Assembly: GCF_024700885.2 (NCBI RefSeq)
Contig: NZ_CP117016.1
Strand: one strand, 5' to 3'
Origin: Escherichia coli
Lineage (GTDB): Bacteria; Pseudomonadota; Gammaproteobacteria; Enterobacterales; Enterobacteriaceae
DNA length: 64,000 nucleotides
The translations under genes and the position numbers were made by a program. The notes under the pieces were generated by a model. It did not search any database. It saw only the letters and a program-made list of their open reading frames with translations, and was not told the DNA's origin. This document shows, one piece after another, positions 1 through 29,827 of this stretch. The first letter of the stretch is position 1. Every line of letters starts with the position of its first letter.

Positions 1-18
1 CCGGAAAAATCAACCTTG

Positions 19-840
19 TTACCTAGTTACCTTTTTTAACTGCCGCTCAGCCCATGCTTCTTCAATATCAAACCGGGTCACCAGCGCATCATAGAATTTC
101 TTAACTGTTTTTTCCCATGACGCGCGTGTTATCTGGTTTGTCACCTCGCATATAGCATTAAATGCCTCCGTTGATGGTAGCCTTTCATAGCCACGACCAC
201 CACAACGCTGGCAGTCTCTGATAACAGGCATACCACGTTTTACCGACTCTTCACGATGAATGGCGACACCACGCCCACGGCAATCCTTACAGGCGGTGGA
301 AACCTCACCCTTCCCGCCACACTCCGGACAGGCAACTTTTACCACCTCCCTGACTTTTTTCCATTCTTCCCAGTAAGACGGATACACACCTTTCGTACAC
401 TTTGCCCATACCGGCGGCTTACCATCCGGATACTGGACCTTGTTTGTAAAAACTACGCTTTCAATAAATTTTTCCCCATAGCAACAAGGGCACAGCTTTT
501 TACTCGCTGCGCTGCGGGCATAATCCTCAAAAGCGCACGAAGCCATAATGCGCATCACTACCGGTTTTATTTCTGCCGGAAGTTTTCTCAACGCCGCCAC
601 ACGATCGCACCGACTGAGTGCATAATCTGCCAGTAATTCTGTTGCCCGCGCCCTGTCATTCATACTGATGCCCATCTTCCCCAGGAACGCAGAAAACCCC
701 ATCTCAGCCCGATTCTGTGTCATGCCCTGCGCGGCCATCACATCAGTGATACTCAGCGCATCTTTTGACGTTGAGGCCGATGCATCGGTCAGGCAAGGGG
801 ATTTTGGGGAGTAGTATTTCGGTAAATCTTCCAGTTTCAT
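19..840 (-). CDS. phage late-gene antitermination protein Q-like (QuuQ-type, zinc-finger)
   Basis: 273-aa ORF with repeated CxxCxGxG zinc-finger motifs (CPECGGKG, CKDCRGRG, CQRCGGRG); lies downstream of rusA and the DUF968 gene, the position of Q in lambdoid nin/late-control regions. Family call from memory. Confidence 0.55.
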   Translation of the reverse strand: MKLEDLPKYYSPKSPCLTDASASTSKDALSITDVMAAQGMTQNRAEMGFSAFLGKMGISMNDRARATELLADYALSRCDRVAALRKLPAEIKPVVMRIMASCAFEDYARSAASKKLCPCCYGEKFIESVVFTNKVQYPDGKPPVWAKCTKGVYPSYWEEWKKVREVVKVACPECGGKGEVSTACKDCRGRGVAIHREESVKRGMPVIRDCQRCGGRGYERLPSTEAFNAICEVTNQITRASWEKTVKKFYDALVTRFDIEEAWAERQLKKVTR

Positions 841-1211
841 TTTTTGACCTGCTCTTCATGCATTATGGGGTAAATCTTCACCCCCAGACGTCCACCAGAT
901 ACTGGCTGACCACGAACGATATTGATTTCATCAAACTGCTCATCGTCCATTAACACTCCCGCATGCGTCAGCGCATCCAGCGGTGCTTTCAGGATATTGT
1001 CCAGGTCGCGACGACGCTTATCCGGTGGCTCTGCAATCACCTTTATCGCCAGCCTTCCGGACAGGCTTAATTTCAGCCGCTGCTGGCGAACAATAAGCGC
1101 CACAGCACGGCGATAACGCTTTCCCTCCTCCGAGATAAAATATGTGCTGCCACGGCGTCGCCAGTAAGTGTTCACCGTCGGCGGGTAAGGTAAAACCAAA
1201 TCTATGAGCAT
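837..1211 (-). CDS. rusA: RusA-family Holliday junction resolvase
   Basis: 124-aa ORF with the RusA signature DKRRRDLDN and overall RusA-like pattern; start overlaps the upstream gene stop. Confidence 0.8.
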   Translation of the reverse strand: MLIDLVLPYPPTVNTYWRRRGSTYFISEEGKRYRRAVALIVRQQRLKLSLSGRLAIKVIAEPPDKRRRDLDNILKAPLDALTHAGVLMDDEQFDEINIVRGQPVSGGRLGVKIYPIMHEEQVKK

Positions 1212-1223
1212 CAGTCACCTCTT

Positions 1224-2273
1224 TTACCCAAGCACGCCAGTTGCAAAGGCGTGATCAAGAAAACGAAAAATTAAATCAACCTGAGAACCATGCTTTTCTT
1301 CGAACGCCAGCGGATCCGCATGAAGCTCGTTGTGATGCTCCCGACACAGCGGTAGCGTGAAAATATCGTGAGATTTTGTCCCCATTCCGCCCTGACCATG
1401 ACCAATCAGGTGATGGGGATCGTCGGCTGGCTTACCACAACACGCACACGGCTGTGTCTTCACCCAGCGTGTGTATTTCTCGTTAACCCAGCGGCGACGT
1501 TTAGGTCGTTTCATGAAAGATTCCGGAGACTCAGGATCAACGGCAATGCTGACCACCGTCTTTTCCTGTGGTGGGTTCTGTTGCTGGTGGGCGTGAGGCA
1601 GCGGCGCAAGATTTTTTGTGCGCTGTTTCAGTATGCTGGTGGCGGTCTGCTCTCCCGGTACGATGTCGCTTTCACGGTACATTGAGCGGATTTTTTCCGC
1701 ACGCAACCCCAGCGAACGACGTAATACCGCTTCCGGTAGCGCGTCCGCCACCTGATTGCGGACCGCCCACCAGGATAATTCAGCCAGAGATAATTCACGC
1801 TCCTGCGTACCGCTTATTGCGTGACCGATGACGTCAATCATCCATGCTGACAGGTTTTGATGAGCAACTTGCTCGAGTGATTCGGATGTCTGGTCACGCA
1901 GCTGGTTGTCGCAGTGCCAGCACAACACCATTGCGCCGGTACCATAACGGTGAATGACGGTTTCGCTGTGATGATAATCGCCGTGTGGCCACTGGCAGGA
2001 TTTAATATGGCGCAACAGCCAGTCAGACAATGCACCAGCACCACCAGCAGCACGAATCACCCGTGCGTTACTGAAAAACGGCAGCAATGTTTTGTCTTCC
2101 ACCAGCGGCTGGCGAGCGGCAGGAACGACCCCGGACGGCAGATTACGCATGCTTTTCGGTTCCGGCTCCACCAGTAACCGGGTATTGTGGAATACCGGCA
2201 TGGATTCACGGCCCGGCTTAACGATCACCAGCCCGAGTTCCGGTACCAGAACAGGTCGAAGTAATACCCGCAC
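1224..2273 (-). CDS. DUF968 (YdfU-like) prophage protein with C-terminal HNH-like Cys/His motif
   Basis: 349-aa ORF; C-terminus CACCGKPADDPHHLIGHGQGG...CREHHNELH resembles the HNH-like motif of the DUF968 family found next to Q in Qin-type prophages. Confidence 0.6.
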   Translation of the reverse strand: MRVLLRPVLVPELGLVIVKPGRESMPVFHNTRLLVEPEPKSMRNLPSGVVPAARQPLVEDKTLLPFFSNARVIRAAGGAGALSDWLLRHIKSCQWPHGDYHHSETVIHRYGTGAMVLCWHCDNQLRDQTSESLEQVAHQNLSAWMIDVIGHAISGTQERELSLAELSWWAVRNQVADALPEAVLRRSLGLRAEKIRSMYRESDIVPGEQTATSILKQRTKNLAPLPHAHQQQNPPQEKTVVSIAVDPESPESFMKRPKRRRWVNEKYTRWVKTQPCACCGKPADDPHHLIGHGQGGMGTKSHDIFTLPLCREHHNELHADPLAFEEKHGSQVDLIFRFLDHAFATGVLG

Positions 2274-2274
2274 G

Positions 2275-2664
2275 TTACCTCCAGATGCGTTGCTGGAATG
2301 TGCGGGATGGACGCGGTGGGCGTTCGGAGTAAGGCAATCTGACTGAGATTATCCAGTGACGGTAGTCGAGGCTAAGGGCTTTTTTAACCTCGTATCCGCG
2401 CCTGCGGTAACACTGAATTATCCATTCAGCCTGCTCTTCAGTGCATGGTGGATGCTGGAACCAGTCCGATTTGAATGCATGAAAACGCCGTCCGCACCTG
2501 CTGGCAAAGACGGCAGAATCATCAGAATTGTGTAATTTGGTATCGTGCGCCATCGGTTGTCTCTGCTGGCGCAGCAGGTGCCAGTTGTTCAGGCTGGCGT
2601 ATAAAGTATAAATAAACTGGTTCCAGTGTAAAGCCCCTACATTAATGGAATAAAAGTCAAACAA
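2275..2664 (-). CDS. hypothetical prophage protein (position of rem in Qin-like prophages); true start may be an internal Met
   Basis: 129-aa ORF directly upstream of and abutting the DUF968 gene; no recognisable motif. Confidence 0.3.
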   Translation of the reverse strand: MFDFYSINVGALHWNQFIYTLYASLNNWHLLRQQRQPMAHDTKLHNSDDSAVFASRCGRRFHAFKSDWFQHPPCTEEQAEWIIQCYRRRGYEVKKALSLDYRHWIISVRLPYSERPPRPSRTFQQRIWR

Positions 2665-2919
2665 CAGATTGTTGGGATAAACACAACGCTTATTATTAAA
2701 AGCGATTAGATAAATTAAATTTTAATGTTATGCAATTTTACCAGATCATCATAACATCTCGTTTGAAACCACCGAAACAACAACCATATCAATATTGATT
2801 ATGTTAAAGTGAGTAAATATGGAAAACAACAAATCTGCACATTACGCTCCTTTTTTATCTGTGATACTTTTTGTTTTATGCTGTGTGTGGGCATTATTTT
2901 TATAAAAATATTCACAGAT

Positions 2920-2943
2920 AAAATAAACCCGCCGAAGCGGGTT
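2920..2943 (-). terminator. rho-independent terminator at the 3' end of the hok transcript
   Basis: On the minus strand, hairpin AACCCGCTTCGGCGGGTT followed by a T-tract (plus strand aaaataaacccgccgaagcgggtt), about 70 nt downstream of the hok stop. Confidence 0.55.
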
Positions 2944-3011
2944 AAGTGCGGGTGCATTGAGGATGCCTGACACATCCGAGGTGGCGAGGGATTTCTCCCT
3001 CGCCGGGTCTC

Positions 3012-3167
3012 TTACTCCTCAGGTTCGTAAACTGTGAAGACAGCGACCTCCGTCTGGCCGGTTCGGATTCGTACCTCGCAGAGGTCTTTCCTCGTTACCA
3101 GTGCCGTCACTATGACGGTTAAACAGATGACGATCAGGGCGATTAACATCGCCTTTTGCTGCTTCAT
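3012..3167 (-). CDS. hok: Hok/Gef-family type I toxin (51 aa membrane peptide)
   Basis: Minus-strand ORF below the 60-aa cutoff of the ORF track; translation MKQQKAMLIALIVICLTVIVTALVTRKDLCEVRIRTGQTEVAVFTVYEPEE is essentially the HokD/Hok sequence as I recall it. Structured GC-rich 3' region and upstream leader present. Confidence 0.85.
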   Translation of the reverse strand: MKQQKAMLIALIVICLTVIVTALVTRKDLCEVRIRTGQTEVAVFTVYEPEE

Positions 3168-3424
3168 AGCCTGCTTCTCCTTGACCTTTCGGTCCGTAAG
3201 AGGCTAATCTCTATGTGTCGCATAGATATGGCCTCAGATTAATGTTAAACGTCTTGCAGGACGCGTAATGTTACCTGGGGCTTTTCTCTATCTGCCGTTG
3301 GTGTTCATGCCCGAGGCAGATAGCCTCAAGCACCCGCAGTCATTCTACTTAACTAAGATTTCCCCGCAAACCGTTTTTGTCCAGCACAATAAATATCCAA
3401 CTAAACCAATGGAGTTCGCTGTAT

Positions 3425-3604
3425 TTACCGCCAGTATTCAATGCACATGACCGCCATGAACACCCCTAAAAAAAGGGCATTTATATATCCAAATATTAAT
3501 ATCAAAACATCAACTTTTTCCATATACCTTGCTGTGAAGATGATGGGCATACATGATACGAACAACCAGAACGCAACAAACAAAAACTGCAATGCGTTTT
3601 TCAT
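3425..3604 (-). CDS. hypothetical small hydrophobic (membrane) protein
   Basis: 59-aa ORF from internal Met (MKNALQFLFVAFWLFVSCMPIIF...) in an AT-rich stretch; two predicted hydrophobic segments; no family assignment. Confidence 0.3.
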   Translation of the reverse strand: MKNALQFLFVAFWLFVSCMPIIFTARYMEKVDVLILIFGYINALFLGVFMAVMCIEYWR

Positions 3605-4144
3605 TATTCCTCCTACAATCAATGTGCAATTACATTTAAACACACCTCAATTTGGCCGGACATATAAATATCTAAACTAGAAAAAATCACTTACATAGCG
3701 TTACAAACTCTTTAGTCTAAAGGTTCATCGTAAAACATTCCCCATACTTATCAGTCCGTTCCGCGCCAGGTAGCTTATTGCCTTATCTGGCAACCTATAA
3801 TCAGGTTTCCGCTTTTTCAGTTGGCTGGTCGTTTAACCGACATAGTTAACCCATTAATCTAGTTGCCGGATGTTGGTGGATTTTCGCGTTTTAGTTGTTC
3901 ATAAAAGTGCACAGCTTTAACCAGTTCTTCTGATGTAACCAGGGCTGGTGAGGCAGTGAATAAGGCCTGAATTTGATAGTTCGGCCTGTCGTTACAATCC
4001 TCTTTTTTCGGTACATATTTCCAGTCAACAGACCACTACTTCTCCTGAAAGTCCGTAACGCCTTTTTTCACGTAGCGATATCGCCATGCCACTGGTTTTG
4101 CTTGCCCCGCCGTTTCATACCCTTCCTGATAATTAATCTCGCTC

Positions 4145-4319
4145 ATTCATCGCCCCACTCATCACAATATGCTTCGACCGGATTTTTTCCTGCTTCATAA
4201 TCATCACGCCATGCTTCAGCATCAGCAGCACTGCCACCACGTAACTCTGCATAGTCCATTAACAGTTCATGCCATTTTTCAAAACTGACGTTGTATTTAG
4301 TTGAACCAAAATCAGCCAT
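4145..4319 (-). CDS. hypothetical small acidic protein (58 aa)
   Basis: ORF MADFGSTKYNVSFEKWHELLMDYAELRGGSAADAEAWRDDYEAGKNPVEAYCDEWGDE; start overlaps the stop of the upstream 60-aa ORF; below the ORF-track cutoff. Confidence 0.3.
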
Positions 4320-4494
4320 TTTGCTCTTCCTCTTCGTCTTTTATTTCGTGATATGAGTAATTGCAGTAGTTAAAGAAAATACCTTTTGCTTCGTCATGTA
4401 TTTCATCAGGCGTCGCATCAGCATCCACTTCGAATTCATCCTCGAAATCTCCACCAGCCATTCCCGTTTCAATAATTATTTTGAACTTTCGCAT
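4312..4494 (-). CDS. hypothetical small highly acidic protein (60 aa)
   Basis: ORF rich in D/E (GDFEDEFEVDADATPDEIHDE...DEEEEQ); translationally coupled to the next small ORF. Confidence 0.3.
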   Translation of the reverse strand: MRKFKIIIETGMAGGDFEDEFEVDADATPDEIHDEAKGIFFNYCNYSYHEIKDEEEEQNG

Positions 4495-5001
4495 TTCACT
4501 ACCGCCCTTTCGGGTGGCCTCCTGCTGTTCTGAGGGTGCAGAAATCCCTCCGGTTAAGGATTAAATTTTTAACAGTGCTAAATTTAATTATTCAGTTTTG
4601 GATTTTGTCACCCTGCGTATCCGCGCTTTCCCGTTACGCTCAATCTGAATTAGCTTTTCTATATTTTTTCGCCTTTCCCGTTCCTCCTGGCGCAAGAGCC
4701 TTACATCATCTGCCAGTCTGGTTTCTCTTTTCGCCACAGAGAGCATCCAGTCAAATGGCTCCACAACTGCACCGCAGATTTTACAGCGGACCTGACGCTC
4801 TTTTTCGTCAACCCGGACAGAAGCGTGATGGCAATATGGTCTTTCCGATGGCTCATAAAGAAAATTAACCTGATTACGAGGGTCATCCTCTTTTATCGGA
4901 AATAAAACGATATTGCTTAACTAATCCTCTGGTTTTATTTCCATGCTCCTCTCCTTTGATGCGAATGCCAGCGGCAATTGAAGCCTGATAGCTAATTTCA
5001 C

Positions 5002-5424
5002 TCACAGTACCGCCTCCTGAAAATTACCCTGATAGAAAGCCAGTACACGCTGCATAGCTTCGCTCTTCCGGCACTCGCGACAGATTATATTCAGGCGCCT
5101 GTCGTAGCGGCGTATTTCTCCGTCTGGTAATGACCAGATTAGGTCCGGATCAACCGCAGATGGTTTCTTCGGCTTTGCCCTTGAGAGCTTTTTACGGGCA
5201 TTTTGCCAGTCCTTACGCGCCTGTTCAGACGGGAATAACCCGTAACCAGAGTTGTATACATCGCCACTGGCAACCAGCTCTCTGGCCAGAACGCTCATCA
5301 GATATCTTGTTGCCCCAGTTTTAGTTTCCAGTCGTCGTAACGTCTCGCGCCCACTCTGGCGTACGAGTTCAACAACCTGCCCTTTAATTTTTTCCCGCTC
5401 TTCTTGTGTAAAAACTTTTGCCAC
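5002..5424 (-). CDS. hypothetical prophage protein (140 aa)
   Basis: ORF immediately downstream of the replication gene in the same operon orientation; basic, with a CRECRK motif; no confident family. Confidence 0.4.
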   Translation of the reverse strand: MAKVFTQEEREKIKGQVVELVRQSGRETLRRLETKTGATRYLMSVLARELVASGDVYNSGYGLFPSEQARKDWQNARKKLSRAKPKKPSAVDPDLIWSLPDGEIRRYDRRLNIICRECRKSEAMQRVLAFYQGNFQEAVL

Positions 5425-5464
5425 AAGCCCTCCTGAAAATTACCTCATGACCAGAAATTAACAC

Positions 5465-6541
5465 TTACCCCCTGAAGCCCGGCGGAATTTCGTTATCCGG
5501 TTCAGAAATATGATTCACACAACGCTGGTTGTTCGTGCCGCTTACCGGGAGCAACCAGGGGTTCTCAAAATTCCGGTCCGGTCCAAAAAACGTCGTCGCT
5601 CGCTGAACAAATTCCGTTCCCGTTTTCCCGGTAGCCGCCAAGTATCTTGCGTAACGCCTCACGCCATCCAGCATGGCCTCTGGTGGCACCCCCTCGCGTA
5701 ATCTGGCCTTCCAGGCACTGAAAGCGGATTTCTTCGGGTTTGCTCCGGCACGCAACGGGTACTCCCGCCAGACCTGTTCGAACACATCCGGATAATCCAC
5801 TCGTCCCACAGACTGCCCGGTGTTTTCCGGGACTACCCGATCGGCTTCCCGCTGAATGGCGGAATCGGCTTCGGGCTGCTGCAGTTGGTGTGATTGCTCC
5901 GGCCTTGCGGTCATCACCTGCTGCACAGCGCCCGAATCGGCTTTCAGCGCATACGCTGAATCGGCTTCCGGTGTCGTGCCTGCTGGCTGACCAAGATTGA
6001 CGGTCTGAACATCCCCTGCCTGGTTCGTGGCGTTTTTTACGCCATGGACCATAGTGTTTTGATCTTCTTGATCTGTATCTTTATCTGTATCTTTATCTGT
6101 CGTGACTCGTCGTGACATGTGCGTGACATTTCGTGACGCGCCGTGACAATCGCCATTTTGTTCCCGCTTTCTTTCCCTCTCTCGCTGCGCCCTCTTGCGC
6201 TCTGCAGGAGATTTTGCGGTTTGCGAAATATTGCCGTTGTCCTCTTTAAGCACCTGGCGTTTTTCCCATCCAGTGATTAAATCACCATCAAGTACCCGCC
6301 CCTGCATCGTCTGCAAAATTGAATCAATTACCTCTTCTGTCACGTCGAGCGCACTTGCCAAATCTTCTGTCGTGACATCAATGTGACCTCGCGTGACATT
6401 TCGTGACGCGCTCACCAGGAGGTGGATATACACTGCCATCACTGTTGCAATTGGCTGCCCTGACACCCTGGCAATTGTTCGCCACTTAGGGTCATTTGGC
6501 ATGTCATGCCATAATCTGAGCCAGGCGTTAGCCATACTCAC
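5465..6541 (-). CDS. putative phage replication initiation protein (lambda O-like / YdaU DUF1376-like)
   Basis: 358-aa ORF downstream of the cro-like and YdaT-like genes; embeds two arrays of CGTGAC repeats at about 10-bp spacing, as lambda ori lies within O; contains a DKDTDKDTD linker repeat. Confidence 0.6.
   Translation of the reverse strand: MSMANAWLRLWHDMPNDPKWRTIARVSGQPIATVMAVYIHLLVSASRNVTRGHIDVTTEDLASALDVTEEVIDSILQTMQGRVLDGDLITGWEKRQVLKEDNGNISQTAKSPAERKRAQRERERKREQNGDCHGASRNVTHMSRRVTTDKDTDKDTDQEDQNTMVHGVKNATNQAGDVQTVNLGQPAGTTPEADSAYALKADSGAVQQVMTARPEQSHQLQQPEADSAIQREADRVVPENTGQSVGRVDYPDVFEQVWREYPLRAGANPKKSAFSAWKARLREGVPPEAMLDGVRRYARYLAATGKTGTEFVQRATTFFGPDRNFENPWLLPVSGTNNQRCVNHISEPDNEIPPGFRG
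6101..6147. repeat. iteron-like array: 5 x CGTGAC at 10-11 bp spacing (candidate phage ori)
   Basis: CGTGAC at 6101, 6111, 6122, 6132, 6142; preceded by tandem 12-bp repeat atctgtatcttt at 6071-6100. Confidence 0.55.
6371..6407. repeat. second iteron-like array: 4 x (C/T)GTGAC at 10-11 bp spacing
   Basis: Repeats at 6371, 6382, 6392, 6402; shares an identical 20-bp block gcgtgacatttcgtgacgcg with the first array (6121-6140 vs 6391-6410). Confidence 0.55.
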
Positions 6542-6606
6542 CTCTTTTGATACCGAATCTTTTTACTCACAAATTGCCGGAAGTGATCCGGTATGAATAT
6601 TGCGAG

Positions 6607-7032
6607 TCAATGCACAGCCACAATATTTCCTGCAGGGCCACCACGATTCATCTGGTTGAAACCAGCGATCGCCACTGCGACAAAATCATCAGCGTCTCTC
6701 ACCAGTCGTTCCCGCGTCTCCACTAGTTCCCGAAAATAGGCTGAGCTATGACTGCGCATTCGGGCCACCAGCAGAGGTGGCATTGCTTTTTCGATAGCTG
6801 GTAACAACGCCTGAATTTTTTTAACCGCATCAGGGGTGTCTTTCTCCACCCAGCGGAAAATTTTCTGAGTATTGCGAGCCAGGGCTTCCGGATGGCTGTC
6901 GTCATACAGTTCCGGGAACGTCATTCCCAGCTCGAAATACGCTTTGGTAATTTTCACAGCCGGTACTTTTTCGCCGTCCGGATGCGCCCAGGCATTCATC
7001 GCCATGCGGATGTGTTCATGCTTGATTTTCAT
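6607..7032 (-). CDS. YdaT-like prophage protein
   Basis: 141-aa ORF MKIKHEHIRMAMNAWAHPDGEKVP... matching my recollection of Rac YdaT; follows the cro-like gene with ATGA overlap. Confidence 0.6.
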   Translation of the reverse strand: MKIKHEHIRMAMNAWAHPDGEKVPAVKITKAYFELGMTFPELYDDSHPEALARNTQKIFRWVEKDTPDAVKKIQALLPAIEKAMPPLLVARMRSHSSAYFRELVETRERLVRDADDFVAVAIAGFNQMNRGGPAGNIVAVH

Positions 7033-7283
7033 GAATCAACTCCCATCAGCTTTTTCGTAGTAGTTTTATTCCTGCCAATAGTTAAAATTGCATCGGCAGA
7101 AAATAATCCGTTTGATGCAAGAGCGATTTTTTCAGCGTAATTTGTTTCGCCGGTATATTCTGTGCGAGGCAATTTTCCGTTATCCATCCATTTATAGATT
7201 GCTCTTTGGCTGACACCACAAACGTCGGCCACAACAGCAACGCGAACAGTTTTGATTACATCTTCAAGTGTTTTCTGGTTCAT
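7029..7283 (-). CDS. Cro-like / YdaS-like HTH regulator
   Basis: 84 aa from internal Met (MNQKTLEDVIK...); HTH-like segment VCGVSQRAIYKWM; divergent from the DicA-like repressor gene. Start chosen to leave a 79-bp operator region. Confidence 0.55.
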   Translation of the reverse strand: MNQKTLEDVIKTVRVAVVADVCGVSQRAIYKWMDNGKLPRTEYTGETNYAEKIALASNGLFSADAILTIGRNKTTTKKLMGVDS

Positions 7284-7362
7284 ATCACCCTCACAATGTG
7301 AACTTTGAGTACATGCTATAACAGAACTGACAGTACATTCAAGAGCGAATATCATTGAACTT

Positions 7363-7782
7363 ATGGTTCATGAAGATAAAGCGCGTAAAGAGTTCGCCAG
7401 TAGGCTTGCGCTAGCCTGTGAAAACGCTGGTTATGAACAACATGGAAGGCAGGCAGAAATTGCCCGTCGAATGAAATTAACACCAAAAGCGGTTAGCAAA
7501 TGGTTTAATGGCGAAACAATTCCTCGCCGGGAGAAATTAAGGGAATTAGCAACACTAATAGGAACAACACCAACCTATCTTTTGGGAGAGGATACAGAAG
7601 AAAGTGGACAGGTACGTTTCTATCAGGAGTTAAATCCAAGACAAAAAATCATCATTGACCTTCTGGACGAGCTCCCTGACAGTGAGACAGATGAACTTTT
7701 AAAAACTCTTGAAGAGAAAAAACAGAAGTACAATGCAATTTACGAAGAGTTAGCACGAAAGAAAAAACAAAAAGCCTCTTAA
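7363..7782 (+). CDS. DicA/RacR-like XRE-family HTH repressor (immunity repressor)
   Basis: 139-aa ORF with N-terminal HTH and acidic C-terminal helix; heads the ydfABC-dicF-dicB module as dicA does in Qin. Confidence 0.6.
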   Translation: MVHEDKARKEFASRLALACENAGYEQHGRQAEIARRMKLTPKAVSKWFNGETIPRREKLRELATLIGTTPTYLLGEDTEESGQVRFYQELNPRQKIIIDLLDELPDSETDELLKTLEEKKQKYNAIYEELARKKKQKAS

Positions 7783-8079
7783 ACCAGCATAAATCCGGTA
7801 GCGCCTTCCTCCGGGTTTGTGCTTCACTTTATCCCATCTCATTTTTTTACACACAAAATGTACTAAAAGTACTTTACAACAATGAACGCAAAGTACATTA
7901 TATACCTACCACCCACCCCGCCCCACAGAATGCAGGGCAATACTTCGAGTTACCAGGCAGTGGTCAGGGGTTAAGTAGCCAGCCCGAGGCGTAAGAACAT
8001 GACGGCAGGGTTCAACTTTAATAACTATGCAGCAGGTTTTTGTTCCGCTACCCCGGCGTTAAGGGGAAATGAGGTCAGC

Positions 8080-8235
8080 ATGGATACTATCGATCTTGGC
8101 AACAACGAATCTCTGGTGTACGGCGTGTTTCCCAACCAGGACGGCACCTTCACCGCAATGACGTATACCAAAAGCAAAACGTTTAAAACCGAATCTGGAG
8201 CGCGTCGCTGGCTGGAAAGAAATTCAGGTGGGTGA
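8080..8235 (+). CDS. ydfA: YdfA-like small prophage protein
   Basis: 51-aa ORF MDTIDLGNNESLVYGVFPNQDGTF... with good SD (aaggggaaatgagg); matches my recollection of Qin YdfA. Confidence 0.55.
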   Translation: MDTIDLGNNESLVYGVFPNQDGTFTAMTYTKSKTFKTESGARRWLERNSGG

Positions 8236-8236
8236 T

Positions 8237-8368
8237 ATGGATTTCGACACAATCATGGAAAAGGCTTACGAAGAATACTTCGAAGGCCTTGCCGAAGGCG
8301 AAGAAGCTCTCAGCTTCAGCGAATTTAAACAGGCGCTTTCCAGTTCGGCAAAATCTAACGGCTGATAA
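8237..8368 (+). CDS. ydfB: YdfB-like small prophage protein
   Basis: 43-aa ORF MDFDTIMEKAYEEYFEGLAEGEE... immediately after ydfA (1-bp gap). Confidence 0.5.
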
Positions 8369-8394
8369 GCGAAACAGCACCGCGAGGAATCAGC

Positions 8395-8613
8395 GTGCAG
8401 AAACGAGAACCCGTCATCATCGCGCCAGACTATACCGATGATGAACTTTATGAGTGGATGCGCCAGAAAATTAATGCAGCGCAGGATCTGAAATGGGCTA
8501 ATGAAGCCAGGGCTAAGCAGGCTGAAAATCTGTCCGCTCTGGAGCAGGATATCACCAATCTGGAAAAAGCAGCGGCATTAAGCATTGCCAGAATGATTAC
8601 ATACCCGCGTTAG
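8395..8613 (+). CDS. ydfC: YdfC-like prophage protein
   Basis: 72-aa ORF MQKREPVIIAPDYTDDELYEWMRQKINAAQDLKWANEARAKQ...; order ydfA-ydfB-ydfC as in the Qin dicB operon. Confidence 0.55.
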   Translation: MQKREPVIIAPDYTDDELYEWMRQKINAAQDLKWANEARAKQAENLSALEQDITNLEKAAALSIARMITYPR

Positions 8614-8954
8614 TAGCTAATCAACAAAGCTAAGGTTAGTAATTAAGGAGTTCTCCACGGGTGAGGTGGAGTGCGTGCGCCGGACACGGGTGAGCATCCG
8701 GCACTGACAGTTTACTGAAAGGATATTTCCCTGAAAAGTCAGACCATAACGCGAAAGCGCACGGCGAGGTAGCTGGTTCATAGATAGCCTGTCGTTAAAT
8801 TTTCGTCGACCGTGCGCTTCCGGTTGTGGCAATCCGCGAAATGGCGCGGCGGTAAGTATGGCGGGGTTATTCCTTCCCCCGTTGAGGACACCGGGTTGTC
8901 AGGTTGACCATACGCTTAAGTGACAACCCCGCTGCAACGCCCTCTGTTATCAAT

Positions 8955-9007
8955 TTTCTGGTGACGTTTGGCGGTATCAGTTTTACTCCGTGACTGCTCT
9001 GCCGCCC
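8955..9007 (+). ncRNA. dicF: DicF small RNA (ftsZ-targeting sRNA processed from the dicB operon transcript)
   Basis: 53-nt stretch tttctggtgacgtttggcggtatcagttttactccgtgactgctctgccgccc followed by TTTTT; matches the DicF sequence as I recall it and sits between ydfC and dicB. Confidence 0.75.
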
Positions 9008-9181
9008 TTTTTAAAGTGAATTTTGTGATGCGGTGAATGCGGCTAAGCGCACGCGGAACAGTTAAAACCAAAAACAGTGTTATGGGTGGATTCTCTGTAT
9101 CCGGCGTTAATTGTTAACTGGTTAACGTCACCTGGAGGCACCAGGCACCGCATCACAAAACTCATTGTTGAGGGCGCGATA

Positions 9182-9370
9182 ATGAAAACGTTATTACCAA
9201 ACGTTAATACGTCTGAAGGTTGTTTTGAAATTGGTGTCACTATCAGTAATCCTGTATTTACTGAAGAGGCCATTAACAAAAGAAAACACGAACGGGAGTT
9301 ATTAAATAAAGTATGCATTGTTTCAATGCTGGCCCGTTTACGTCTGATGCCAAAAGGATGTGCACAATGA
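9182..9370 (+). CDS. dicB: cell-division inhibitor DicB
   Basis: 62-aa product MKTLLPNVNTSEGCFEIGVTISNPVFTEEAINKRKHERELLNKVCIVSMLARLRLMPKGCAQ is near-identical to DicB as I recall it. Confidence 0.85.
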   Translation: MKTLLPNVNTSEGCFEIGVTISNPVFTEEAINKRKHERELLNKVCIVSMLARLRLMPKGCAQ

Positions 9371-9558
9371 ATCCAGTATTTGCACTTATTCTGACGGTTT
9401 TTCTTGTTTCCGGAGAGCCAGTTGATATTGCAGTCAGTGTTCACAGAACAATGCAGGAATGTATGGCAGCAGCAACCGAACAGAAAATTCCAGGCAACTG
9501 TTATCCGGTCGATAAAGTTATTCACCAGGATAATAACGAAATCCCGGCAGGATTTTAA
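9367..9558 (+). CDS. ydfD: YdfD-like small protein with N-terminal hydrophobic segment
   Basis: 63-aa ORF MNPVFALILTVFLVSGEPVDIAV...; ATGA overlap with dicB stop. Confidence 0.65.
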   Translation: MNPVFALILTVFLVSGEPVDIAVSVHRTMQECMAAATEQKIPGNCYPVDKVIHQDNNEIPAGF

Positions 9559-9651
9559 AACAGCACCGTAATAAATATCCAGTTTCATTCTTATATGTCA
9601 GCAATGGCAGAGATTTGTTCACCCTTAAATCTGTGATGAGGTTTATCAATA

Positions 9652-12093
9652 ATGAGCACTGATAAAGAAGAATTTGCACTATATTGCGAAGCAAAAAATG
9701 ACAAAGTAAGAAAACGCCTAGGAATTAAAGGTGGTTTTTACTGGACTACAGCAAAAAAATTATCTGTTGCAATCTCCCGCTGCATTACCGCAATGGATGA
9801 CAACGATTATGATGAAGACGACTTTAAAAAACCCGTCCGCGTCAATTTGCCCGTTGTTGACGACCTTCCGCCAGAAGGCGTGTTTGATACTGAATTCTGC
9901 AACCGCTATGAAAAAGGCGGGAAAGATGGCATCACAATGACATTTATCGGCCCTTCCCCCTCTGTTCAGGACAAATCAGCCAGCACTGATAATACCAACA
10001 TCAACGGCGAAGACATGACTGAGATTGAGGAGAGCATGCTTCTACCTGTCTCCGGTCAGGAACTGCCCATTCGTTGGCTTGCTCAACACGGCAGCGAAAA
10101 ACCAGTAACGCACGTTTCACGCGACGAACTCCAGGCATTACACATTGCACGGGCTGAAGAACTACCGGCTGTTACTGCCCTGGCTATTTCGCATAAAACC
10201 AGTCTGCTCGACTCGCTGGAGATTCGCGACCTCCACAAACTGGTTCGTGACACTGACAAAGTTTTCCCTAATCCTGGTAATTCAGACCTGGGACTAATAA
10301 CTGCTTTTTTCGAAGCATACCTGGACGCTGACTACACTGATCGGGGTCTGCTGACAAAAGAGTGGATGAAAGGAAATCGTGTTTCACGCATCACCCGCAC
10401 GGCTTCCGGTGCTAATGCTGGCGGTGGGAACAAAACCGATCGCAGTCCGAATTTAGTACACACCCTCGACACACTGGATGTGGAGATTGCAGCAGCCACA
10501 CTTCCGATGGATTTTAATATTTATGAAATTCCGGGCAGCGTTTATCGTCGCGCAAAAGAAGTAGTCCTGAAAAAAGAAAGTCCGTTCAAAGAATGGTCCG
10601 CAGCACTTCGTGCAACCCCGGGTATTCTGGACTATTCCCGCGCCGCTATTTTTGCACTTATCCGAAGCGCACACCCTGAATTTTATCACTACCCGGGACG
10701 CCTTCAGGGGTATATCAACGCCTATTTGACGGAAACTGATCACGAGAACCCCAGCAAGGAAACTCTCACAGCTGCCCGGCATACGCCGGAAAAAGATATC
10801 CTGGAAGAAATTAACCGCGAGGTGGTTACTGAGCGTGAAACAGAAGAAGAAAAACCACAACCATCTGACGCAATGGCAGGTGAACAGGCAACAACTGAAA
10901 CAATGGAACCGGATACAACTGAACATTGCCAGAACGCGCAGTCGCTGGATGCTCAGTCGCAGGTGAGTTCCGCTAACCAAGTAAAAGTCACCGCTGACGA
11001 AGTAAACAAAATTATGCAGGCAGCCAATATCAGCCAGCCTGACGCCGATAAGTTACTTGCTGTATCGCGTGGTGAATTTGTTGAGGGGATTAGCGACCCT
11101 AATGATCCGAAATGGGTCAAGGGGATCCAGACTCGCGATTCTGTGAACCAGAACCAGCATGAATCGGAACGGAACGACCAAAAAGCGGAACAAAACAGCC
11201 CAAATGCGTTACAAAACGAGCCAGAAACGAAACAATCCGAACCAGTAGCGCAACAGGAACCGGAAAAAGTCTGCACCGCCTGCGGTCAGAGCGGTGGCGG
11301 CAACTGCCCTGATTGTGGCGCGGTGATGGGCGACGCAACATACCAGAAAACATTCGATGAAGAGAATCAGGTTGAAGTTCAGGAAAATGATCCGGAGGAA
11401 ATGGAAGGCGCTGAACATCCACACAAGGAGAATGCTGGCAGCGCTCAGGACCACGCCAGCGATAGTAAAACTGGCGAGACGGCAGATCCCTTAATTACGG
11501 TGAATGGTCATCACGAAATCACATCCACCAGCAGGACGTGTGACCATCTAATGATCGACCTTGAAACCATGGGAAAAAATCCTGATGCCCCGATCATCTC
11601 AATAGGTGCAATATTTTTCGATCCGCAAACCGGAGATATGGGACCGGAATTTAGTAAGACTATCGATCTGGAAACTGCTGGCGGAGTCATTGATCGGGAC
11701 ACCATTAAATGGTGGCTTAAGCAATCACGCGAAGCGCAATCTGCCATTATGACCGATGAAATCCCGTTAGATGATGCACTGTTACAATTGCGGGAATTTA
11801 TCGACGAAAACTCCGGTGAATTTTTTGTTCAGGTCTGGGGAAATGGAGCCAACTTCGACAACACGATTTTGCGCCGTTCATACGAACGGCAGGGGATCCC
11901 CTGCCCGTGGCGTTACTACAACGATCGCGATGTACGCACAATCGTTGAGCTGGGGAAAGCCATAGACTTCGATGCCAGAACGGCTATTCCATTCGAAGGT
12001 GAGCGCCATAATGCACTTGATGACGCTCGTTACCAGGCAAAATACGTTTCAGCTATCTGGCAAAAACTGATCCCGAGTCAGGCTGATTTTTAA
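9652..12093 (+). CDS. YdfE-like large prophage protein with C-terminal DEDDh (DnaQ-like) 3'-5' exonuclease domain
   Basis: 813-aa ORF; the C-terminal ~190 aa carry exonuclease motifs (MIDLETMG..., ...[13 protein letters not shown]..., ...HNALDDAR); preceded by an acidic low-complexity linker and a Cys4 zinc ribbon (CTACG...CPDCG); in the ydfE position between ydfD and xis. Confidence 0.6.
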
Positions 12094-12151
12094 TGTTCAA
12101 CCCTGATCGCCGCTAACCGCATATAGTTAGCGGCGGTTATGAGATATAGCT

Positions 12152-12355
12152 ATGAGCAGCTTATTTTTAACCGAAGATGAATTGCTAATATTAACGGGCT
12201 GCAAATATGCAAGCCACCAGCGAAAATGGTTAATGGAAAACGGGCTTCCGTTCTATACCAATCGTAGTGGCAAACCGATTGTCAGCCGGGATCTATTTAC
12301 CTGCAATAAAACTTTACCACCACGCGAGGTAGAGCCGAATTTTGGTGCGATCTGA
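12152..12355 (+). CDS. xis: excisionase (Xis-like)
   Basis: 67-aa ORF immediately upstream of and overlapping (ATGA-type) the integrase start. Confidence 0.6.
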   Translation: MSSLFLTEDELLILTGCKYASHQRKWLMENGLPFYTNRSGKPIVSRDLFTCNKTLPPREVEPNFGAI

Positions 12356-13380
12356 TGGGAAGACGAAGGAAAAATCCTGAACACGAAAAATTACCTCCAA
12401 ATGTATACCCAAATAAATATAGTTATGTATGGAAACCAACATCCAGAGAATCTGTAACACTAACCGCCATCAAGGATGGTTTAGCTGCTTTATGGAAAAA
12501 GTATGAGGAAACTGTAAATAATCGCGATCGTGCAATGACATTCGGTCGCTTGTGGGAAAAATTCCTCGCCAGCGCCTGTTACAGTGACCTTAGCCCAAGA
12601 ACACAAAAAGATTATCTGCAACATCAAAAAAAGTTGCTTGCCGTATTCGGTAAGGTACCAGCGGATTCCATAAAACCAGAACACATCCGTCGATACATGG
12701 ACAAAAGAGGGGAACAGAGCAAAACGCAAGCCAACCATGAAAAAAGCAGTATGTCCCGCGTTTACAGTTGGGGATATGAGCGAGGGTACGTGAAGGTTAA
12801 CCCATGTGCAGGTGTAAGTAAATTCAAGGCCAAAAACCGCGAACGATATGTAACCGACAAAGAATACCAGGCAGTATTAAGCGTTGCACCTCTTCCTGTT
12901 TTTATCGCAATGGAAATTGCCTATCTGTGTGCAGCGAGGGTTTCCGATGTGTTATCGCTGAAATGGGAGCAGATTGGAAACGACGGGATCTTTATCCAGC
13001 AAGGGAAAACAGGGAAAAAACAGATAAAAGCATGGAGTCCACGATTACAGGCGGCGATCGAAAAAGCAAAACAGTTACCAACATCCGCCTATGTAATCAG
13101 CAATCAATACGGCAACCGATATATGTACAAAGGCTTTAACGAAATGTGGGTAGAAGCAAGAAATCGCGCAGGCAAAATTTCAGGTATTTTAACCGACTTC
13201 ACCTTTCATGATCTGAAGGCGAAAGGAATTTCAGACTATGAAGGAAGCAGTCGGGATAAGCAACTTTTCTCTGGTCACAAAACCGAGGGGCAAGTGCTAA
13301 TCTATGACAGGAAGGTTAAAGTTTCACCGACACTTGATGTCCCGTTACCTGAAAATATTCCAAGAAAATATTCCAAGTAA
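12355..13380 (+). CDS. int: lambda-family tyrosine integrase
   Basis: 341-aa ORF starting MGRRR... like lambda Int; transcribed toward the tRNA-Ser 3' end, which lies 52 bp downstream. Confidence 0.85.
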   Translation: MGRRRKNPEHEKLPPNVYPNKYSYVWKPTSRESVTLTAIKDGLAALWKKYEETVNNRDRAMTFGRLWEKFLASACYSDLSPRTQKDYLQHQKKLLAVFGKVPADSIKPEHIRRYMDKRGEQSKTQANHEKSSMSRVYSWGYERGYVKVNPCAGVSKFKAKNRERYVTDKEYQAVLSVAPLPVFIAMEIAYLCAARVSDVLSLKWEQIGNDGIFIQQGKTGKKQIKAWSPRLQAAIEKAKQLPTSAYVISNQYGNRYMYKGFNEMWVEARNRAGKISGILTDFTFHDLKAKGISDYEGSSRDKQLFSGHKTEGQVLIYDRKVKVSPTLDVPLPENIPRKYSK

Positions 13381-13432
13381 TTCCAAGTGTGATTTTTGTC
13401 ACTGACTTAATGATGTATAAGTGATTGAATTT

Positions 13433-13522
13433 TGGCGGAGAGAGGGGGATTTGAACCCCCGGTAGAGTTGCCCCTACTCCGGTTTTCGAGACCGGTCCGT
13501 TCAGCCGCTCCGGCATCTCTCC
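13433..13522 (-). tRNA. serU: tRNA-Ser (anticodon CGA)
   Basis: Reverse complement reads GGAGAGATGCCGGAGCGGCTGAACGGACCGGTCTCGAAAACCGG...CTCTCTCCGCCA, a 90-nt class II tRNA with anticodon CGA and encoded CCA. Confidence 0.9.
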
Positions 13523-13615
13523 GTTCAGATGGTTGCCATGATGCCAGGAAATTTGGCATTTTAACAGTCCCTGTCCGTGCAATTTTGTTCAAGTGACGAG
13601 TTTGCGAGCAAAACG

Positions 13616-14413
13616 ATGATTAAGTGGCCCTGGAAAGTACAAGAATCAGCACATCAAACTGCCCTTCCCTGGCAGGAAGCACTATCGATCCCCCTTTTAA
13701 CGTGTCTGACGGAACAGGAACAAAGCAAATTAGTCACTCTTGCCGAACGTTTTTTACAGCAAAAGCGGCTTGTTCCTTTACAGGGCTTTGAACTGGATTC
13801 ATTAAGAAGCTGCCGGATAGCACTTCTATTTTGCCTGCCCGTTCTGGAGTTAGGACTGGAATGGCTGGATGGTTTTCATGAAGTCTTAATTTATCCTGCG
13901 CCATTTGTGGTCGATGACGAATGGGAAGACGATATCGGTTTGGTGCATAACCAACGTATTGTTCAGTCAGGTCAGAGCTGGCAGCAAGGGCCTATCGTTT
14001 TGAACTGGTTGGATATACAAGATTCTTTTGATGCTTCTGGTTTTAACCTGATTATTCATGAAGTCGCTCATAAGCTGGACACCCGTAATGGCGATCGCGC
14101 CAGCGGAGTTCCCTTTATTCCGTTGCGTGAGGTTGCTGGCTGGGAACACGATCTTCATGCTGCAATGAACAATATTCAGGAAGAAATCGAATTAGTTGGC
14201 GAGAATGCGGCGAGCATCGATGCTTATGCTGCCAGTGATCCTGCTGAATGTTTTGCCGTACTTTCTGAATATTTCTTTAGCGCCCCAGAACTTTTTGCTC
14301 CTCGTTTCCCTTCATTGTGGCAACGTTTCTGCCAATTTTATCAACAAGATCCTTTGCAGAGACTGCATCACGCTAATGATACAGACTCGTTTTCGGCGAC
14401 GAATGTTCATTAA
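13616..14413 (+). CDS. mtfA: Mlc titration factor A (MtfA/YeeI)
   Basis: 265 aa from internal Met [14 protein letters not shown]...; HEVAHKLD zinc-peptidase-like motif; conserved serU-mtfA-asnT synteny of E. coli. Confidence 0.85.
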
Positions 14414-14466
14414 TTAACAACTTTGCAGATTAATTAACCAATTGAAATGGCTTATGAAATTTAGTG

Positions 14467-14495
14467 TTGACAGACAAGGTACCGCTAAGTAATAT
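14467..14495 (+). promoter_or_regulatory. sigma70 promoter of asnT (TTGACA-17bp-TAATAT, GC-rich discriminator)
   Basis: ttgaca at 14467-14472 and taatat at 14490-14495, followed by gcgcccc; the same architecture precedes all four tRNA-Asn copies. Confidence 0.55.
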
Positions 14496-14513
14496 GCGCC
14501 CCGTTCTCACGAT

Positions 14514-14589
14514 TCCTCTGTAGTTCAGTCGGTAGAACGGCGGACTGTTAATCCGTATGTCACTGGTTCGAGTCCAGTCAGAGGAGCCA
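14514..14589 (+). tRNA. asnT: tRNA-Asn (GUU)
   Basis: 76-nt TCCTCTGTAGTTCAGTCGGTAGAACGGCGGACTGTTAATCCGTATGTCACTGGTTCGAGTCCAGTCAGAGGAGCCA; its 3' end is the HPI attachment site. Confidence 0.95.
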
Positions 14590-14750
14590 ATTTTCTGTTT
14601 TCTTGCATCCTTGCGAATCTTTATCTGATGTTGATTCAACAGGTTAGTGTGAAAACTCTTCTCGGTGCATTTTGATTTTACCCTACGCATCGGGAAAAAT
14701 TGGTGGTCAAATCTGGGGTCGGGTTAGTTCGATAATGGAGTGACCCCCAT

Positions 14751-16013
14751 ATATCCCTTACCGACGCAAAAATCCGCACCCTCAAGCCTTCTGATAAACC
14801 CTTTAAAGTCTCCGATTCTCACAGTCTGTATCTGCGGGTCAAGCCGGGTGGCTCCCGCCACTGGTATCTCAAATACCGTATTAGCGGTAAAGAATCCCGC
14901 ATTGCGCTGGGTGCCTATCCAGCCATCTCCCTGTCTGATGCGCGACAGCAACGTGAAGGTATCCGTAAAATGCTGGCGCTGAATATCAACCCGGTACAGC
15001 AGCGGGCTGCTGTACGTGGCTCACGAACACCGGAGAAAGTTTTTAAAAACGTGGCGCTGGCGTGGCATAAAAGTAACAGGAAATGGTCGCAGAACACCGC
15101 CGACCGTCTGCTTGCCAGCCTGAACAATCACATCTTTCCGGTCATCGGGAACCTACCTGTATCAGAACTTAAACCCCGTCATTTCATTGACCTGCAGAAA
15201 GGGATCGAGGAAAAAGGTCTGCTGGAGGTTGCGTCCCGCACACGGCAGCACCTGAGTAACATAATACGCCATGCGGTCCATCAGGAGTTAATCGATACGA
15301 ACCCTGCAGCAAACCTTGGCGGCGTGACCACACCTCCTGTCAGACGGCACTATCCTGCCCTGCCGCTGGAGCGGCTGCCTGAACTGCTTGAACGTATTGG
15401 GGCATATCATCAGGGCCGTGAACTGACCCGGCATGCCGTTCTGCTGATGCTGCATGTGTTCATTCGCTCCAGTGAACTGCGTTTCGCCCGCTGGTCAGAG
15501 ATTGATTTCACAAACCGAGTCTGGACGATACCCGCGACGCGAGAACCCATTATTGGCGTGCATTATTCCGGCCGCGGGGCAAAAATGCGAATGCCGCATA
15601 TCGTCCCCCTCTCAGAACAGTCCATCGCCATTCTGAAACAGATTAAGGATATCACCGGTAATAATGAACTGATCTTCCCCGGCGACCATAACCCGTATAA
15701 GCCAATGTGTGAAAACACGGTCAATAAGGCACTGCGGGTGATGGGTTACGACACGAAAAAGGATATCTGCGGTCACGGCTTCCGGGCAATGGCATGCAGT
15801 GCGCTGATGGAATCGGGTTTATGGGCAAAGGACGCAGTAGAACGCCAGATGAGTCATCAGGAGCGCAATACCGTGCGCATGGCTTATATTCATAAGGCAG
15901 AGCACCTGGAAGCCCGCAAAGCGATGATGCAGTGGTGGTCGGATTATCTGGAAGCATGCCGAGAATCTTATGCACCGCCTTATACAATTGGTAAAAATAA
16001 GTTTATCCCATAG
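14751..16013 (+). CDS. int: P4-family tyrosine integrase of the High-Pathogenicity Island; no canonical start codon in frame
   Basis: Frame open from stop at 14733 to 16013; in-frame N-terminal region ...SLTDAKIRTLKPSDKPFKVSDSHSLYLRVKPGGSRHWYLKYRISGKESRIALGAYPAIS... is the P4-type arm-binding domain, but there is no ATG/GTG/TTG before the Met at 14970 (codon 14751-14753 is ATA). The 5' coordinate is therefore uncertain. Confidence 0.75.
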   Translation: MSLTDAKIRTLKPSDKPFKVSDSHSLYLRVKPGGSRHWYLKYRISGKESRIALGAYPAISLSDARQQREGIRKMLALNINPVQQRAAVRGSRTPEKVFKNVALAWHKSNRKWSQNTADRLLASLNNHIFPVIGNLPVSELKPRHFIDLQKGIEEKGLLEVASRTRQHLSNIIRHAVHQELIDTNPAANLGGVTTPPVRRHYPALPLERLPELLERIGAYHQGRELTRHAVLLMLHVFIRSSELRFARWSEIDFTNRVWTIPATREPIIGVHYSGRGAKMRMPHIVPLSEQSIAILKQIKDITGNNELIFPGDHNPYKPMCENTVNKALRVMGYDTKKDICGHGFRAMACSALMESGLWAKDAVERQMSHQERNTVRMAYIHKAEHLEARKAMMQWWSDYLEACRESYAPPYTIGKNKFIP

Positions 16014-23676: not shown

Positions 23677-23719
23677 TATGAGTAATGCTTTTCGGTAAGA
23701 CGTGCCATCAGGAGGAAGA

Positions 23720-29700: not shown

Positions 29701-29827
29701 CCTGACGTTGCTTGACCTCTTCACCCACCCTTCTCCTGCTGCCCTGGCCGATTATCTGGCCGGCGTCGCCACGGTGGAGAAAACAAAACGACCTCGCCCT
29801 GTTCGCCGTCGTCAGCGGCGGATATAG
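23720..29827 (+). CDS. irp2: yersiniabactin NRPS HMWP2 (ArCP-Cy-A-PCP-Cy-PCP)
   Basis: 2035 aa from Met at 23720 (strong SD aggagg); carrier-protein Ser motifs [24 protein letters not shown]; cyclisation DxxxxD motifs DLLIMDASS and DNLLLDGLS; adenylation core [12 protein letters not shown]. Confidence 0.92.

Follow-up and report, generated by a model that had tools for sequence, protein, structure and literature searches.

Does an amber codon near the start of a small prophage reading frame mark a gene that has been inactivated, or a gene that is still translated from a rare start codon? The question is raised by a 64,000-nt stretch of the Escherichia coli contig NZ_CP117016.1 (RefSeq assembly GCF_024700885.2), here called the window, in which an initial annotation had noted a minus-strand frame that opens with ATG, meets a TAG and then continues for 110 codons with a C-H-C-C pattern and a basic C-terminus. 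Translation recovers exactly this frame, and of the two readings offered for it the first is the one that our comparisons bear out. The window gene is in all likelihood an ordinary nonsense (amber) pseudogene of a lambdoid-phage early-region accessory gene.

The interrupted reading frame

The zinc-ribbon gene, located on the minus strand at 4588-4944, translates as MEIKPED*LSNIVLFPIKEDDPRNQVNFLYEPSERPYCHHASVRVDEKERQVRCKICGAVVEPFDWMLSVAKRETRLADDVRLLRQEERERRKNIEKLIQIERNGKARIRRVTKSKTE*, or in abridged form MEIKPED*LSNIVLFPIKEDD...CHHASVRVDEKERQVRCKICG...KSKTE*, with 110 sense codons downstream of the TAG (Table 1). The TAG does stand after codon 7, as had been described, but the ATG is followed by six further codons before it and not by seven. 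The description of the downstream part as lacking a canonical start holds up to codon 61, a GTG at 4764 that lies beyond the last of the four zinc ligands; between the TAG and this codon the frame has no ATG, GTG or TTG, and the only near-start codons in this interval are an ATC (codon 12, 4911) and an ATA (codon 17, 4896). The match to the profile of the phage protein family phrog_1621 starts at residue 1, which agrees with the ATG at 4944-4942 as the native start. No promoter-like site was found within 4200-5500, where terminator-like matches were at background level, and an Rfam scan of window positions 1-15000 returned no RNA element overlapping the TAG site, its hits (sok, DicF and tRNAs) lying elsewhere.

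Table 1. Features of the interrupted gene and of its surroundings in the window
Feature	Position	Strand	Basis
Nonsense-interrupted 118-codon lambdoid-phage accessory gene (phrog_1621, in all likelihood a pseudogene)	4588..4944	-	translation, profile match, homologues
Native ATG start	4942..4944	-	PGAP start in 7/7 sampled GAG genomes and in Esc1
Amber TAG, codon 8 (Glu8 = GAG in relatives)	4921..4923	-	alignment, translations, 64-mer counts
Terminal TAA	4590-4588	-	translation
Shine-Dalgarno-like AAGGAGAGGAG, directly upstream of ATG	4946..4956	-	sequence; identical in aligned relatives
CHCC zinc-ribbon core (C38, H40, C54, C57)	4774..4833	-	invariant ligands; AlphaFold2 model
Zinc-ligand codons C38, H40, C54, C57	4833-4831, 4827-4825, 4785-4783, 4776-4774	-	sequence
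Predicted long basic C-terminal helix, residues 63-117	4594..4758	-	model and invariant columns
ATC codon 12, RefSeq/PGAP start of 107-aa CDS WP_225104553.1	4909..4911	-	annotation of 100%-identical genome
ATA codon 17 (V17I), TAG-linked marker	4894..4896	-	16/16 TAG copies examined
40-aa ORF overlapping gene start out of frame	4883..5005	-	ORF list; phrog_37408 match
hokD toxin ORF, adjoining sok	3012-3167
sok antisense RNA	3165-3335		Rfam, 100.8 bits
DicF sRNA	8956-9007		Rfam, 76.7 bits

A conserved phage protein family

The repaired protein matches phrog_1621 with an E-value of 1.4e-55 (residues 1-117 against profile positions 1-120 of 134), and a large protein collection holds full-length relatives, down to ~44% identity, from Escherichia, Salmonella, Klebsiella, Kluyvera, Yokenella, Serratia, Erwinia, Pluralibacter and Yersinia. 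Searching 1.84 billion cluster representatives with the family profile gave 1,595 matches at E<=0.001, each standing for a 50%-identity cluster; members are mostly 100-190 aa long and have the same layout, and one subgroup of ~175-200 aa carries an additional C-terminal helical extension. In a 25-sequence family alignment the four ligands C38, H40, C54 and C57 are invariant, as are F15-P16, F64 and, in the helix, L84, R85, E87, E88, R91, R92, I95, K97, L98, I99, I101, E102, N104, K106, R108, I109 and R110. Glu8, the residue replaced by the stop, is at least 90% conserved in the same alignment and belongs to an acidic N-terminal tail with the motif ExELxN(I/V)VxFP; the C-terminal helix has the motif LRxEExxRRxNIEKLIQIERNAKARIRR.

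The window frame keeps the LRxEE...NIEKLIQIERNAKARIRR helix motif, with A105G, and the CHCC ligands. With respect to membership in phrog_1621, the full-length match, the ligands and the helix are all present and an uninterrupted ORF from the ATG is absent. The gene shares its start, ligands, helix motif and early-region niche with the family members WP_001296187.1 and WP_000403785.1 of E. coli lambdoid prophages, from which it differs by the TAG at codon 8, by V17I and by two changes relative to the intact allele that fall in the helix, A105G (4632-4630) and R116K (4599-4597).

Protein-guided codon alignments show which frame is under constraint. Between E. coli and Klebsiella, Serratia and Yersinia, substitutions at the first, second and third codon positions number 25, 20 and 69, 44, 25 and 76, and 48, 37 and 77, respectively, and the five other frames are not kept open but are broken differently in each of the three genera. 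This excess of third-position substitutions, together with the interruption of the other frames across genera, indicates that the zinc-ribbon frame is the coding frame. The ORFs at 4536-4868 (plus strand) and 4701-4886 (minus strand) that the initial annotation had called less protein-like are indeed in the ORF list, and their frames are not conserved in the Klebsiella, Serratia and Yersinia homologues; the cross-genus alignments thus favour the zinc-ribbon frame over its overlapping neighbours, where the opposite pattern had been named as the outcome that would speak against it.

The sequence resembles known zinc ribbons at a level below the usual thresholds. The best Pfam assignment is Zn_Ribbon_TF (PF08271; 21.6 bits, E 1.6e-4), under the gathering threshold of 29, no Pfam family covers the zinc-ribbon/helix family as a whole, and an NCBIfam search with the repaired protein found no match. 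An AlphaFold2 model (mean pLDDT 76.8) predicts a disordered, acidic N-terminus, a two-hairpin zinc ribbon at residues 43-54 (beta-hairpins at 43-46 and 51-54) and a single helix from 63 to 117, with pLDDT >90 over roughly residues 80-110. Foldseek comparison of the model with PDB and BFVD returned nothing below E 0.1, the top match being the TFIIB N-terminal ribbon 1pft (E 0.33, probability 0.69), and a sequence-profile search of PDB was empty. The likeness to the TFIIB-type ribbon (PF08271; 1pft) lies in two short beta-hairpins with four zinc ligands and in sub-threshold scores; the phage protein differs from it in having a C-x-H rather than a C-x2-C first knuckle and a 55-residue basic helix where the TFIIB type has cyclin-like repeats. 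The resemblance goes no further than this. From this architecture, we tentatively suggest that the intact protein might be a dispensable, early-expressed factor that uses its basic helix and zinc ribbon to form dimers or to bind nucleic acid or a host protein.

In Klebsiella, Serratia and Yersinia the gene lies in the nin region, translationally coupled to an upstream YbcO, RusA, NinG or NinH gene. Downstream of it, the Klebsiella and Yersinia loci have a small ORF followed by a Q-type antiterminator, and the Serratia ORF at the corresponding position has no Pfam match. In Stx2a phages and phage ArgO145 the gene adjoins Ea22-like genes; in prophages with this Ea22 context, the upstream Ea22-like gene overlaps the start of the zinc-ribbon gene by 23 nt. 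Some database entries join an Ea22-like domain to the zinc ribbon (PF13935 + PF08271), but these fusions are probably frameshift or annotation variants and not a real domain architecture; a Pfam scan of longer family members found such Ea22-like read-through fusions and no informative partner domain. In all loci examined the gene is annotated as 'hypothetical', and the literature search found no paper naming the RefSeq accession and nothing specific on nin-region zinc-ribbon proteins.

Origin of the stop codon

The 651-nt neighbourhood of the gene is 100% identical in E. coli WP8-S18-ESBL-07, 98.5% identical in Esc1 and 96.8% identical in the induced phage vB_EcoS-640R1. Esc1 and vB_EcoS-640R1 both have GAG as codon 8 and match the window throughout the 60 nt around it, ATG and Shine-Dalgarno sequence included. 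The alignment with homologous prophage regions that had been proposed as a check therefore finds a sense codon, GAG (Glu8), in the place of the TAG, and homologous prophages and phages with that codon have the same ATG and Shine-Dalgarno sequence, as expected for an amber-inactivated gene. As read from the aligned sequences, the TAG is one G-to-T transversion that converts GAG into amber.

An exact 64-mer with the TAG is present in 90 complete E. coli genome records, and the corresponding 64-mer with GAG is present in 1190; its presence in 90 records indicates that the TAG is an inherited allele and not a sequencing error. Each of the 16 TAG copies examined carries both G22T (E8*) and G49A (V17I), whereas the sampled GAG copies have GTA at codon 17. 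That the two changes are common to all TAG copies points to a single origin of the allele. None of the sampled phage copies has the stop, nor does any other genus compared.

Decay of the TAG lineage

We compared the window copy and 15 further fetched TAG copies (n=16) with nine GAG copies, seven of which were taken at even steps down the ranking, the others being Esc1 and the phage. Thirteen of the 16 TAG copies carry further lesions that truncate the frame or fall at invariant sites; these 13 copies are phylogenetically non-independent and represent ~8 secondary events, almost all of them disabling or at invariant residues. A second stop replaces the zinc ligand C57 (TGC to TGA) in five strains. 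Three strains have frameshifts near nt 272-275 that derive from two separate events, one of these strains also carrying C54Y, and in one strain ISApl1 is inserted after ~codon 17. R108W is found in three strains, one of them also with I95T, and R85L in one recombinant copy. Across the 16 TAG copies there is a single private synonymous change, G273A. The 'base' TAG haplotype is confined to the window, WP8-S18 and PS_131; the window copy has no second disabling lesion, and its downstream frame is intact apart from the two helix substitutions A105G and R116K.

In contrast, eight of the nine GAG copies are full length, with pairwise differences of 4-7 synonymous versus 1-4 amino-acid changes. Damage among the GAG copies consists of Q100* in E. 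coli AH19K002, and a widespread Ea22-context GAG haplotype carries R110C, which alters an arginine that is invariant elsewhere. Generally weak selection on the gene in E. coli prophages may thus account for part of the decay signal. Judged from these sequences, selection on the gene there is not absolute, but the contrast between the GAG and TAG lineages is clear, and the lesions of the TAG lineage have the pattern of neutral decay. Two marks of a nonsense pseudogene are found together: a stop at a sense codon of the orthologues and relaxed constraint downstream of it (further lesions in 13/16 TAG copies, truncation in 1/9 GAG copies).

A history can be put together from these observations. 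The ancestral gene started at the ATG at 4944, behind a strong Shine-Dalgarno sequence, and encoded 118 aa, until a single G-to-T change turned the near-invariant Glu8 codon from GAG into TAG. Ribosomes starting at the ATG would now stop after seven residues and leave the remaining 110 codons essentially untranslated, with no zinc-ribbon protein being made. The allele arose once, on a haplotype carrying V17I, and by descent and by recombination between mosaic prophages it reached Qin/Rac-like prophages that occupy at least three attachment sites, where its decay continues. The gene is presumably dispensable, like other nin/early-left accessory genes, so that a null allele could persist and drift; loss of the protein might carry no evident cost to the lysogen, although we hold this last step with low confidence.

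Decay of this kind, with a point nonsense mutation in a dispensable accessory gene, further lesions and neighbouring genes that are pseudogenised or IS-struck in related strains, resembles that of cryptic lambdoid prophages of the Qin, Rac and DLP12 type. There is no substantive difference from these cases, the peculiarity here being automatic annotation that masks the lesion by an ATC start and a 40-aa ORF. Biologically the finding is minor: a mosaic E. coli prophage in decay has lost one more accessory gene to a point mutation, with no unusual coding mechanism involved. It does draw attention to the intact gene, which represents a widespread phage family without a Pfam model whose members combine an acidic N-terminal motif with a CHCC zinc ribbon and a long basic helix, and a natural null allele in near-identical prophages is a ready-made comparison for studying this family.

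Spread among prophages and the possibility of selected loss

TAG copies are found in prophages beside tRNA-Ser/mtfA, rspB and ompW. The ompW prophage is continuously similar to the window (99% over window 1-8665), whereas the rspB prophages show patchy similarity in which a DUF977/zinc-ribbon/DUF7167 module (window 5527-3855) is 95-98% identical and is flanked by unrelated immunity and replication modules. Patchy identity of this module across attachment sites implies that the allele moved by mosaic recombination of lambdoid prophages, and homologous exchange between such prophages is documented as a general matter (PMC3945230).

The same pattern might instead reflect an adaptive knockout, in which the intact protein harms the lysogen (e.g. 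by a leaky host-directed early function) and the null allele was selected and spread. A single TAG haplotype shared by prophages that occupy three attachment sites and differ in their immunity and replication modules would fit such a history, as would the IS insertions and additional stops that the gene has suffered in E. coli and Shigella. The intact allele, however, is ~13 times commoner, inducible phages and Stx phages carry it, and ordinary exchange of the kind described in general terms in PMC3945230 explains the spread equally well. We therefore consider an adaptive knockout unlikely. A wider version, in which the amber allele is a selected knockout or a down-tuned, occasionally read-through form of a host-directed early protein, swept by recombination into unrelated Qin/Rac-like prophages at three or more sites because the intact protein burdens the lysogen, has a slightly smaller chance still of being correct; if true, it would suggest that host toxicity or regulation is the activity of an uncharacterised family of about 1,600 50%-identity clusters.

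Annotation of the allele and alternative products

In the 100%-identical genome, PGAP annotates a 107-aa CDS from the ATC at 4911 together with the 40-aa ORF at 4883-5005 (WP_001345625.1). The 107-aa product (WP_225104553.1 and similar) is annotated in several genomes and corresponds to the rare-codon start that had been suggested as the alternative to an inactivated gene. If it were a functional, N-terminally shortened protein, initiated at the ATC or at the ATA at 4896 and perhaps by re-initiation after the TAG, the intact downstream frame of the window copy would be accounted for, and the spacing of the TAG and the ATC, four codons apart, would be favourable in principle, the ATA lying nine codons beyond the TAG. 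Initiation at ATC or ATA is, however, very inefficient in E. coli, and the nearest purine-rich stretch is a GAGGA ~13 nt upstream of the ATC, with no Shine-Dalgarno sequence at 5-10 nt. The shortened protein would also miss the conserved E6, E8 and N11 of the N-terminal motif, which the family alignment places upstream of the ATC, and intact homologues all start at the upstream ATG or at a GTG. Moreover, the second stops, frameshifts, IS element and zinc-ligand changes gained by the TAG lineage are unexpected under selection for such a product. A functional shortened protein is thus very unlikely, and the rare-codon start agrees with the RefSeq model without gaining support from the gene itself; to judge from the sequence context, the ATC start is probably an annotation workaround and not a real start.

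Alternatively, the TAG might be decoded by a suppressor tRNA or by programmed read-through, with full-length protein being made. In its favour, E. coli uses amber less than any other stop codon, some low-level natural read-through of UAG takes place, and the TAG allele persists in 90 genome records. Against this, the stop is not conserved, being restricted to one E. coli haplotype against GAG in 1190 records, in the sampled phages and in other genera, and in the TAG lineage the frame beyond it is decaying. The five tRNAs of the window are tRNA-Ser(cga) and four tRNA-Asn, none of them an amber suppressor, and a TAG followed by T would correspond to no known read-through context. Read-through is therefore highly improbable as an explanation of the allele.

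Even less credible is the idea that one of the overlapping ORFs (4883-5005 or 4701-4886 on the minus strand, or 4536-4868 on the plus strand) is the real gene and the zinc-ribbon frame incidental. All three are open in the window, and the 40-aa ORF has both a PGAP call in TAG genomes and a match to phrog_37408, but conservation and the third-position excess belong to the zinc-ribbon frame, and the other frames are broken across genera. Calls of the 40-aa ORF are confined to TAG genomes, which show 'hypothetical protein (x2)' here where every sampled GAG genome shows one, and in Ea22-context phages and prophages it is cut by a recombination boundary, their homology to the window beginning within it, ~29 nt upstream of the ATG. 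From its restriction to TAG genomes and from the homology boundary, we conclude that the 40-aa ORF is probably a by-product of annotating a broken gene and not a gene; phrog_37408 is a PHROG of similar short calls.

That the TAG is a sequencing or assembly error, as a single-base difference from the common allele could suggest, is refuted by the occurrence of its 64-mer in 90 independent complete-genome records from many hosts and countries, by its constant linkage to V17I and by the later divergence of the lineages that carry it, and has practically no chance of being true.

Reading the allele as an amber pseudogene has a consequence for databases. RefSeq annotation hides the pseudogene and thereby inflates 'hypothetical protein' families, for example WP_225104553.1, WP_001345625.1 and phrog_37408, and the TAG allele is better read there as a pseudogene. 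A pseudogene flag on the gene appears in RefSeq only when a second lesion is present. A frameshift, programmed or mutational, joining the 40-aa ORF to the adjacent zinc-ribbon frame was considered and rejected: in intact relatives the gene starts from the ATG at 4944, which has a Shine-Dalgarno sequence of its own, and close relatives differ near the start only by the G/T at codon 8. One database protein does fuse the two frames, as a one-off indel variant.

Neighbouring genes in the window

Window positions 1-14592 form the left arm of a Qin/Rac-like lambdoid prophage inserted beside tRNA-Ser(cga). Its genes follow in the order Q-type antiterminator, RusA, DUF968, hokD/sok, pseudogene, 58-aa ORF, DUF7167, zinc-ribbon gene, DUF977, O-like protein, YdaT-like protein, repressor region, DicF, dicB, exonuclease and integrase; hokD/sok and DicF are typical cargo of Qin-type prophages. 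Shortly downstream of the zinc-ribbon gene lies a second decayed gene (3725-4146, minus strand) with a frame full of stops, the equivalent of which PGAP describes in related genomes as 'frameshifted; internal stop'. The integrase of the window is an intact 341-aa ORF, and the DUF968 ORF is 349 aa long. The WP8-S18-ESBL-07 prophage has a frameshifted integrase and an IS21-family ISEc62 in the DUF968 gene (at window ~1584-1589), neither of which is found in the window, so that the two represent the same prophage lineage at different stages of decay.

Window positions 14514-45036 hold a tRNA-Asn, an integrase-like ORF (14970-16013) and then a siderophore-type cluster, which is absent at the same place in the otherwise near-identical WP8-S18 genome. 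The cluster includes a chorismate-binding enzyme (16207-17511), ORFs of 2041 aa (23702-29827) and 3163 aa (29915-39406) and a 673-aa TonB-dependent receptor (43015-45036), and it presumably resembles the Yersinia high-pathogenicity island (yersiniabactin).
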